DNA of 30,972 nt from a virus: the IMG/VR virus record IMGVR_UViG_3300005393_000308; one strand, 5' to 3'. Shown piece by piece: positions 3,677 through 9,507 of the stretch. A program made the translations under genes and the position numbers. Under the pieces are notes generated by a model. It saw only the letters and a program-made list of their open reading frames with translations, had not been told where the DNA came from and did not search any database. Position 1 is the stretch's first letter, and each line of letters opens with the position of its first letter.

Positions 3677-3698
3677 GATAAATCCCTTCCTTAATTAT

Positions 3699-3880
3699 GT
3701 GACGTACCCTACGCCTAAAGGCATAGGGCTTCTCGCTTCATCCTATCTAGCGGTAGTCCACGAAGGCTCCGTCCGAGCCTAGTAATAGTGGTACCTAAGC
3801 TGCTTGCATAGCTAATGCTCTCTGAAGGATGTTCCTGGCAGCGTTAACGTCGCGGTCTATAGAGAGCCCACAGTATGGGC
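3699..3880 (-). ncRNA. Putative TnpB omegaRNA (right-end RNA) scaffold; 5' limit approximate
   Basis: Overlaps the tnpB 3' end and runs through hairpin AGGCTC-GGACG-GAGCCT and the right-end hairpin to TCAC. The predicted guide is the flank ATAATTAAGGAAGGGA. Confidence 0.55.
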
Positions 3881-3983
3881 AACAGTGCCAGCGGTCATTA
3901 AGGGTTTTGGGCACAACGTTACCACAAGCAGAGCACTCCTGGGATGTGTTGCGTGGGTCAACTGCGACTACTTGCCTATCAGC
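3795..3983 (-). pseudogene. tnpB: TnpB C-terminal remnant (Zn ribbon and RuvC-III), absent from the ORF track
   Basis: Translates ADRQVVAVDPRNTSQECSACGNVVPKTLNDRWHCCPYCGLSIDRDVNAARNILQRALAMQAA*. No upstream ATG in frame, and out of frame with the LAGLIDADG ORF. Confidence 0.9.
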
Positions 3984-4011
3984 TAGGCAGAAACTGAATG
4001 ATTTGTAAACG

Positions 4012-4492
4012 TTAGTTACGTAATGCCTGGCGAAACGCTTCTCGCTTCTGTATATCCTCGATAGTTAGTTTCTTGTTTGACCTTTGTGTACTCATATATC
4101 TTTGAAACTCGATTGCGATCTGCGCTTGTTGTTTTTTTAACACGCAGAAATGGTTGAATTGCGCTCAGGAATTCCATTGCTTGCATCGACATAATTCGCC
4201 AAGCCCAGCAAGGGCGTCGTCCTTTCCTGTTGCGGTAATGCGAGTTATCAGAAATGTGTCCTCCAAATGTAGTGTGAAGCCATTCTATTAATTCTCTGTC
4301 TGTGTTGGTAATGCTAACTTGTAGCCAATAATGTGGGCTCTCCGTGCCCTTTTTAGGCTTACTGACACAAATAGTAATTGAGCCTTCGCCATCGAATAAA
4401 CCTACAACATAAGCTAAGGTTAAGGAAACGACTTCAAGCCTCTTCTCTTGCTCCGTATTCGGGTAGAGCTTGTACTTGTACAGCTTGAGCAT
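4012..4492 (-). CDS. TnpB N-terminus::LAGLIDADG endonuclease fusion with an apparent 1-nt frameshift at an A7 run (4132-4138)
   Basis: RBS then ATG at 4492: MLKLYKYKLYPNTEQEKRLE (TnpB start) runs in frame into LAYVVGLFDGEGSI...QVSITNTDRELIEWLHTTFGG...IQPFLRVKK. Removing one A gives a typical tail, QQAQIAIEFQ...KREAFRQALRN* (stop 4012-4014). Confidence 0.82.
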
Positions 4493-4625
4493 CCTTCTCC
4501 GCCTCCCTCCTGAGTACATCAATGACATACTGGTGCATGGACCTGCGTCTAGCGAAGGCAGCACGCCGTAGCAACTCGTGCAAGTCTGGAGTTAGGCGGA
4601 GAGGAAACTTAACCGTCTTCTCCAT
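4434..4625 (-). CDS. Arc-like ribbon-helix-helix DNA-binding protein inside the IS element
   Basis: KFPLRLTPDLHELLRRAA...RSMHQYVIDVL is an Arc/RHH pattern; RBS GGAGGTG. Confidence 0.8.
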   Translation of the reverse strand: MEKTVKFPLRLTPDLHELLRRAAFARRRSMHQYVIDVLRREAEKDAQAVQVQALPEYGAREEA

Positions 4626-4778
4626 AGGTACACCTCCATTTGGCTATTATGGACCTCCATTACTATATAGTACCTATAGAGAGCATTGTTACTTCGCTCG
4701 TACTGATGACTTTAGTACCGCCGCTTTCATCCCATCCCCTAAAGGAGATGGGTTTTCCCGCGGCTGTGATATAAGTAC

Positions 4779-8294: not shown

Positions 8295-8572
8295 TTGCCC
8301 TCCTGTTGGCCTATAATTATACCAGTGCTTATTCGCACCAATTGTCATACCTGTCACTGTTTCTTATGCCGGCGTAGAAGCCATCTACGAACGCCCTCAT
8401 AAGGTCTATTGTCCGCTTGTCGGTCGGCATGTTGGGAAATCTTTTACTCAGTTCTTCTCTTAATATATAGTTGCCCCAAAACTCATTAGTGGCTTTTATG
8501 ATGAATTCACAGGTAATTGCGGCTGGATGCCCCCGATTTCAATCGGGGGAGGAAAGCCGCCTAACCTCCCTT

Positions 8573-8770
8573 CTATGCAACGTATTTGTACCTCCAAGAG
8601 GCAAAACATACAAACTTGCAATCATCTGGTTTAGCCTGTTGGGTTAGTCTCTTGCCAGTATTGATGTCATGCAGACTTATTCTGTTGTTTATGTGCCCGC
8701 CAACATAGCACAGGCCGTATTTTGGGTGCTTAACGTAACTGCCACGTTTGAAGCCAAGTGACCTTGTACC
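8573..8770 (-). pseudogene. isrB: IsrB-like C-terminal remnant, absent from the ORF track
   Basis: Translates GTRSLGFKRGSYVKHPKYGLCYVGGHINNRISLHDINTGKRLTQQAKPDDCKFVCFASWRYKYVA*, which I recognise as the C-terminus of RRXRR/IsrB-type proteins. Confidence 0.75.
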
Positions 8771-8776
8771 ACATGA

Positions 8777-9442
8777 TCAGTAAGTAATTATCTTGTCTCT
8801 TTTGTACCACCTATTGCATTTACTACACAAAACCGAAAGATTTTCTAATGCAAAAAGTTGAACTATTTCTTGTTCGTTTTTAGCTGTTGACAGTGGAACT
8901 TTATGATCTATATCGAAATTATTCCAATCAATTGCTGAACCACATATTGGACACTTGTAATTATAGCGTTCCATCTCTCGTTTAATATGAGCTACAAACT
9001 CTTTTTTGGTATATGGTAAACAATTCCAACTTTTGCCTTTTAGATACTGTCGTAAAGCTACACGCAATCTATTAATCATTTTACCTTCTGGAGTTTGCCG
9101 CCATCTCCTACGATACTCTCTGTTCTTTTTACACCTCTTCAAAATTCTTTGTTTATCAGTTAATAGTGGTAAATATCTAGGACTTAGTCCCATAGATTTA
9201 CATCTCTCATTATGAGCCAACAGAATTTGTTTCGCTTTTCCTGGATTACGATTTCTATTTATAACAATTTTATTCTTGCACGTCTTACATGGTTTTCCTT
9301 CGCTAACAGAACGCTTCTGTACTTCATAAACCTTCTTACAAATTGGGCATAAACAAACTACCAACTTATGGCTGCCATTGGATAGTTCATTAGGATAATA
9401 ACCAAAACGTCTTTTTGTTTCCTCATTCAAGACAATTCCCAT
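8777..9442 (-). CDS. HNH endonuclease with an N-terminal zinc-ribbon
   Basis: N-terminal CPIC...CKTC; C-terminal CPICG...FDIDHKVPLS...ENLSVLCSKCN; visibly AT-richer than the flanks; RBS AAGGGAGG. Confidence 0.88.
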   Translation of the reverse strand: MGIVLNEETKRRFGYYPNELSNGSHKLVVCLCPICKKVYEVQKRSVSEGKPCKTCKNKIVINRNRNPGKAKQILLAHNERCKSMGLSPRYLPLLTDKQRILKRCKKNREYRRRWRQTPEGKMINRLRVALRQYLKGKSWNCLPYTKKEFVAHIKREMERYNYKCPICGSAIDWNNFDIDHKVPLSTAKNEQEIVQLFALENLSVLCSKCNRWYKRDKIITY

Positions 9443-9444
9443 TT

Positions 9445-9507
9445 ATCAACCTCCCTTACGTTGCTACCGCCATCGCAAGCCCCCGAATTTATTCGGGGGT
9501 AGTTGAC
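9445..9507 (-). ncRNA. Retained 5' domain of an IsrB/IscB omegaRNA (truncated)
   Basis: GUCAACUACC pairs with GGAGGUUGAU and encloses hairpins CCCCCGAA/UUCGGGGG and CUUGCG/CGUAAG; same architecture as the 5' end of the 21822-22003 element. Confidence 0.65.

Follow-up and report, generated by a model that had tools for sequence, protein, structure and literature searches.

TnpB is a homing-like nuclease and the ancestor of Cas12. Its guide follows changing donor sites, which a protein-guided cutter cannot do. The tnpB gene of IS200/IS605 elements is dispensable for transposition, and trans-acting guide RNAs on non-autonomous elements (PATEs) have already been proposed (10.1101/2023.03.14.532601). 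Processed omegaRNAs measure 79 to 466 nt (PMC10278001), and Arc proteins are repressors of IS605 promoters (10.64898/2026.09.24.754181). Homodimeric LAGLIDADG enzymes, for their part, typically read palindromes (PMC13565253). In our incomplete coverage of the literature, we found no description of LAGLIDADG genes in tnpB or IS605 elements, nor of free-standing homing endonucleases associated with tnpB.

Here we analyse an element that combines these components. It lies in a 30,972-nucleotide stretch of viral DNA (IMG/VR virus record IMGVR_UViG_3300005393_000308; the window), where it occupies 1,072 bp on the minus strand (4770-3699). The element is of the IS605 type, without tnpA and without a target duplication, and contains an Arc-like gene, codons 1-20 of tnpB fused to an I-CreI-like LAGLIDADG gene, the last 62 codons of tnpB and the right end. 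In the feature list below, L260 is an intact sister element, and L071 and L072 are one element at two sites that, like the window, carries a LAGLIDADG gene of the same family (a carrier).

4715..4770, minus strand: IS200/IS605 left end with subterminal hairpin (4752-4731); start of the L260 alignment, and a junction common to L071/L072
directly outside the left end: CTTAT motif, TTTAT in relatives
4434..4625, minus strand: Arc-like ribbon-helix-helix gene, 63 aa, overlapping the tnpB start (Pfam TacA1/HicB/RHH/Arc); kept in L260 and L071
4433..4492, minus strand: tnpB codons 1-20, with the start codon for the LAGLIDADG frame (HTH_OrfB_IS605 residues 1-20; L260 match up to 4432)
3983..4432, minus strand: single-motif LAGLIDADG (I-CreI-like) gene, degenerate, with a family-type stop at 3985-3983
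3795..3983, minus strand: tnpB codons 302-363 (zinc finger, RuvC-III) in a different frame and with no start codon, beginning at the 3' arm of a palindrome described below
3699..3779, minus strand: omegaRNA core and right end, near-identical to L260, with terminal hairpin (3728-3707) and TCAC (3702-3699)
3683..3698, minus strand: flank, the would-be guide segment, a role suggested by TnpB biology

The subterminal hairpins, the TCAC right end and the upstream motif are all present, as in a non-autonomous IS200/IS605 element. The omegaRNA core and right end fold as in L260, with a z-score of -3.1 against shuffled sequences. No second copy of the flank (3683-3698) was found in the whole window, and the window element is known from one site only. 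The GC content of the LAGLIDADG gene is 0.42, compared with 0.49-0.53 in its flanks. By analogy with described Arc proteins, the Arc-like gene is a probable repressor of the element's promoter, in which case the nuclease frame would also be under Arc control.

The element is flanked by a recJ-like gene on one side and a gene for a 73-aa protein on the other, in phage-like surroundings that include recJ, a helicase, a primase and virion proteins. About 700 bp from the element, the minus strand at 3022-2968 contains the 3' half of a tRNA-Gly(TCC) ending in CCA, from which the normal 5' half is absent. It sits between the phage-like genes and a host-like PAS/GGDEF/HD-GYP gene and is probably a prophage attachment site. 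A second IS200/IS605-type element with both end hairpins is found at 8511-9507 on the minus strand; it contains a 221-aa HNH/zinc-finger gene followed by the short tail of another nuclease, and may reflect a parallel invasion of an IscB/IsrB element by a homing endonuclease.

The ATG at 4492 opens a frame of 158 aa that ends at an ORF stop at 4016. Its residues 1-20 match HTH_OrfB_IS605 (Pfam, E 1e-4), and the in-frame continuation after tnpB codon 20 matches LAGLIDADG_1 (Pfam, E 1.3e-5), which bears out an earlier, sequence-only reading of the locus that had some 20 tnpB codons leading into a single-motif LAGLIDADG domain. The same reading had the last ~62 tnpB codons and the full right end retained: the segment 3983-3795 indeed matches Cas12f1-like_TNB (E 1e-18), the zinc-finger/RuvC-III tail of TnpB, and the sequence is intact to the TCAC at 3699. 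Its description of an in-frame chimera is accurate for the 5' end of the insert. The tail lies in another frame and lacks a start codon, which leaves the 5' junction as the sole fusion.

The tail is best matched by the intact 363-aa TnpB P0050 (87%) of element L260, whose contig comes from the same metagenome sample as the contig with the window's gene. Aligning the window to this closest full-length tnpB element, a check that had been suggested beforehand, accounts for both stubs: L260 matches from the left end to 4432 with 83% nucleotide identity and from 3984 to the TCAC at 3699 with 85%, which places the breakpoints at 4432 (5') and 3984 (3') and reveals a right end that has not decayed. 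The differences between L260 and the window are mostly synonymous (dN/dS 0.13 in the tail and 0.07 in the Arc-like gene), indicating that most of the divergence arose while tnpB still worked and that the insertion was a late event. At the 5' breakpoint, the stop codon of the Arc-like gene is 1-2 nt upstream, and the overlap of this gene with the first tnpB codons rationalizes the presence of a 20-codon 5' stub.

The LAGLIDADG gene itself belongs to a family of about 40 relatives of 147-166 aa that share 55-70% identity. PDB profile matches and Pfam reveal one LAGLIDADG motif and an alpha-beta-beta-alpha-beta-beta-alpha fold, and the structural model (pLDDT 88.7) resembles I-CreI and I-MsoI with TM scores of 0.72-0.74 (0.70-0.74 with I-CvuI included; Foldseek to I-CreI, E 3e-8). 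Residues Glu19 and Lys102, which align to Asp20 and Lys98 of I-CreI, are invariant in 37 relatives and kept in the window copy. The family is under purifying selection (dN/dS 0.12-0.25), and selection on the tnpB tail is relaxed in carriers (dN/dS 0.55 in L184/L081). By analogy, we infer that the family protein acts as an I-CreI-like homodimer that cleaves a palindrome in tnpB. At the sensitivities used, searches of IMG/VR, GTDB representatives, PLSDB and INPHARED returned distant LAGLIDADG proteins and no member of the family.

The window copy carries two indels. One base is extra in an A7 run at 4138-4132, after which the relatives go on in another frame, and one base is missing near 4016, followed by the family-type end. 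In addition, an Ala-to-Val change is found at a position of the LAGLIDADG motif that is invariant in 37 relatives. These three changes suggest that the copy is inactive, and it probably represents a late, dead stage. The sequence is identical in a second assembly (L070; 100% over 11,621 bp), with which it may share reads.

The degenerate state of the copy had been overlooked in the sequence-only reading, as had the Arc-like gene and the recurrence of the LAGLIDADG gene as an invader of tnpB. We scanned the loci of the relatives with a family profile and a TnpB profile: tnpB lies within 400 bp at 41 of 46 family loci; among more distant LAGLIDADG genes, the count is 0 of 217 loci. The family loci collapse to 20 independent elements, and in 16 of them tnpB resumes at codon 298-302 (codons in P0050 numbering). 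The stop codon of the cassette is often at codon 300 and abuts tnpB sequence in most carriers. No carrier keeps 3' tnpB sequence before codon 298, and the junctions are sharp to a few codons. Three carriers are eroded further on the 3' side (L200, L078 and L197), of which the most eroded, L078 and L197, still keep the last 125-170 nt; L194/L195 contains a family member without a tnpB remnant.

The extent of 5' tnpB sequence varies widely. It is nearly complete in L184, L189 and L261, which represent near-clean insertions. It ends at codon 277-288 in three elements, at about codon 142 in one and at codon 20 in the window. Seven diverged carriers (L071, L078, L186, L196, L199, L262 and L265) have a stub that stops within codons 38-48. 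In four elements no 5' part is left, and the LAGLIDADG gene lies directly behind the left end. Several cassettes have a promoter-like leader of their own; others are coupled to the tnpB stub. In L199 the cassette is inverted, yet its 3' junction is the same as in other carriers. At L199:159-974 the tnpB frame reads through the entire LAGLIDADG gene in antisense, and no stop separates the 5' stub from the tail. In another element (L198:1082-1756, P0179), an in-frame fusion of the LAGLIDADG domain to the TnpB zinc-finger/RuvC-III tail immediately follows the left end, and an apparent 2-nt insertion at this site is possibly a repair scar. At L081:3531-5657 a carrier immediately follows another tnpB element, one that has decayed.

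Splicing elements were considered and rejected. A group I or group II intron or an IStron is contradicted by the lack of an Rfam intron match and by the stop codon that abuts tnpB in most carriers, and an intein by the stops at the 3' junction and by the lack of a long TnpB fusion among the longer homologues. The view that the window holds a replacement rather than a splicing insertion, with neither intein signatures nor a group I intron core, was thus right. The further proposal that a deletion had spared exactly the parts needed for expression, mobility and guide production fits poorly, because the retained 3' part is explained by the site at which the family inserts (codon 298-302) and clean insertions exist among the relatives.

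To place carriers among intact genes, we used a tree of the 168-nt tail that includes 13 carriers, a short alignment of moderate strength. The carriers are scattered among intact tnpBs, with 10 gains or losses on the tree, at least 4 of them forced, and a single carrier clade is rejected (AU p 0.039, a modest value from a 168-nt tree). The tail of the window is 83% identical to that of intact L260 and at most 64% to that of any other carrier; L260 is thus one example of the empty alleles that exist. Four clustered carriers group as a clade. The Mantel coefficient between host and cassette distances is 0.45 and drops to 0.28, not significant, without one cluster, weakly suggesting some co-descent of cassette and host. 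L071 and L072 are found behind the same motif at each of their two sites, which indicates that carriers can still move. Between the two copies, the LAGLIDADG gene has 1 difference in 456 bases and the flanks have 16 in 375 (p 2.5e-5), which is the pattern of a recent gene conversion.

The insertion site has a conspicuous property in intact genes. Among about 80 intact tnpBs, the wobble bases of Lys298 and Ala302 covary: AAA/GCT occurs 40 times, AAG/GCC 25 times, AAG/GCT 10 times and AAA/GCC never (p 2e-12 with kinship ignored), and the association holds across GC classes. Further pairs are found at 297:303-304 and 299:301. When 78 intact tnpB genes were scanned over the whole ORF, again with kinship ignored, codons 295-298 with 302-305 emerged as the top covarying inverted repeat (1.74 versus 0.41 +/- 0.12), with the start of the omegaRNA core ranking lower. 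Native sequences of this hairpin, which lies at 2282-2322 in L260 and about 190 nt before the tnpB stop codon, have a folding energy of -12.4 kcal/mol, compared with -8.0 for swapped halves. The cassette occupies the loop of this repeat, and its insertion destroys the conserved hairpin; the idea that the 3' end of the cassette rebuilds it was not supported (permutation p 0.17). Codon 302 is GCT in 16 of 16 carriers and in 50 of 77 intact genes, which provides a lead to the specificity of the enzyme, not a result; intact L260 has the AAG/GCC combination. The palindrome's two stems are not centred on quite the same point, and a clean symmetric 22-bp site could therefore not be written. In the literature, we found no description of a role for this hairpin in the tnpB coding sequence, be it in RNA processing or in regulation. 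By analogy with homodimeric LAGLIDADG enzymes, a site kept constant by both a protein motif and base pairing is what such an enzyme would exploit.

We consider it likely that the family is a free-standing homing endonuclease, without intron or intein, that targets the tnpB gene of IS200/IS605 elements. The argument draws on sequence features, namely the fixed site, its recurrence, the empty alleles, polyphyly, purifying selection, the conversion-like pattern, the palindrome and the retained ends; we infer dimerisation, cleavage and the cleavage position. An I-CreI-like homodimer would cut intact tnpB at the imperfect palindrome around codons 295-305, and repair templated by the cassette-bearing copy would convert the cut one. 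Because tnpB is dispensable for transposition, its loss would come at little cost and splicing would not be needed. The converted element would keep both ends and move with a transposase supplied in trans; the 5' part of tnpB, useless after conversion, would erode, and finally the nuclease itself would decay, as in the window. Plain copying would not produce the inverted cassette, for which either an inversion or a further capture event is required. The clustering of 5' stubs at codons 38-48, including that of the inverted copy, is not fully explained by the homing model, and neither long-range pairing nor a second hairpin near codon 40 was found that could cause it.

The earlier claim that the omegaRNA end is retained was confirmed, and with the core and the right end intact, both mobilisation and guide supply in trans are possible. 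Guide supply in trans may, on a tentative view of these sequences, be a side effect of the insertion and not its cause. The alternative that it is the cause appears unlikely; here, selection would have favoured a deletion or replacement that preserved expression signals, ends and omegaRNA, the element would donate guides to a TnpB in trans, and the LAGLIDADG gene would merely ride along as a passenger. It would fit the intact omegaRNA core of the window, the last 125-170 nt kept even in L078 and L197, the intact cognate TnpB in the same sample and the proposal that omegaRNA-bearing PATEs are served in trans. However, selection for a guide sets only a minimum, yet no carrier extends upstream of codon 298 and the junctions are sharp; some insertions are clean; the hairpin upstream is lost without being rebuilt; and the omegaRNA core overlaps the right end, which is needed for mobility. 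The notion of one ancient insertion, inherited vertically with an element lineage and perhaps domesticated to stand in as a maintenance nuclease or to act as a regulator, is very unlikely. The weakly positive Mantel correlation, the clade of four carriers and the purifying selection on the LAGLIDADG gene are in line with it, but carriers are polyphyletic, the nearest relative of the window is intact, two orientations occur and the L071/L072 gene is more alike than its flanks. As a maintenance nuclease, moreover, a protein-guided cutter could not track donor sites as the TnpB guide does.

Slightly less credible again is the arrival of the cassette by a route other than its own cleavage, either by hairpin-directed insertion into single-stranded DNA or by capture at a fragile hairpin, with the target of the nuclease elsewhere. 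Such a route would agree with a site that is a hairpin loop, with the single-stranded DNA stage of IS605 elements and with the occurrence of both orientations. In contrast, the cassette has no recombinase, reverse transcriptase, terminal repeats or RNA structure, the LAGLIDADG family alone and no other gene is seen at the site, and a palindrome is what homodimeric LAGLIDADG enzymes typically read (PMC13565253). Finally, we attach almost no weight to the idea that the split tnpB yields a working two-chain TnpB, like the mobE-split nrdA of phage Aeh1. Such an arrangement is conceivable for L184 and L181, in which the 5' frame is open and includes RuvC-I and RuvC-II, and for L196 and L265, which have an in-frame ATG before the tail. 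But the window lacks codons 21-301, the 5' parts of most carriers are deleted or frameshifted, and the tail usually lacks a start and evolves under the relaxed selection noted above for L184/L081.

Extending the homing endonuclease reading, it is conceivable, at somewhat less than even odds, that bacteria harbour a widespread and active LAGLIDADG family that spreads as a drive through IS605 populations, with a previously unrecognised, structurally constrained mid-gene RNA/DNA hairpin of tnpB (codons 295-305) as its cleavage site, that carriers use TnpA and possibly, via the retained guide, TnpB in trans, and that the wobble alleles AAA/GCT versus AAG/GCC set susceptibility. If true, a protein-guided homing nuclease would be preying on an RNA-guided one, a parasite of a parasite. 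A multi-copy, dispensable target such as tnpB would explain how homing endonuclease genes persist without introns, and the process would offer one way in which full elements could shrink to miniature, guide-only ones, besides adding a new level to the conflict between mobile elements. Testing the claim is inexpensive, since the prediction pins the target to within a few codons. The intact family members, among them P0003, P0008 and the L184 copy, are, at about 150 aa, compact candidate meganucleases with a new specificity.

The family resembles the single-motif homodimers I-CreI, I-MsoI and I-CvuI in size, fold, single motif and the positions of the catalytic acid and lysine, and its presumed target, like theirs, lies in a conserved stem-forming sequence. 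Unlike the I-CreI group, which is encoded in rRNA group I introns and shares 20-24% identity with it, the tnpB family has no intron and resides in a transposon gene that it destroys. It also resembles the seg and mob genes of T4-like phages, especially mobE in nrdA of Aeh1, which have no splicing element and lie in or beside a conserved gene (PMC3045599), and for which, as proposed here, spread by cleavage and gene conversion, known as intronless homing, is inferred (PMC3045599; PMC13565253). The seg and mob enzymes are of the HNH or GIY-YIG type and are found in phage genes, and nrdA is rescued as a split enzyme; the tnpB family is LAGLIDADG, and its host is a dispensable, multi-copy gene that is inactivated. 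The element as a whole shares hairpin ends, TCAC, the upstream motif, the lack of a target duplication and of tnpA, an Arc-like gene and an omegaRNA core with IS1341-type (tnpB-only) IS200/IS605 elements with Arc and with PATEs (10.1101/2023.03.14.532601; 10.64898/2026.09.24.754181), but differs from them in having, at a fixed site, a foreign nuclease gene in place of tnpB. Like IStrons, which combine IS605/IS607 elements with a group I intron (PMC4227781; 10.1101/2023.11.20.567912), it is an IS605 composite with an intron-associated part; in contrast to IStrons, it has no ribozyme, and the foreign part lies inside tnpB rather than at the 5' end of the element.
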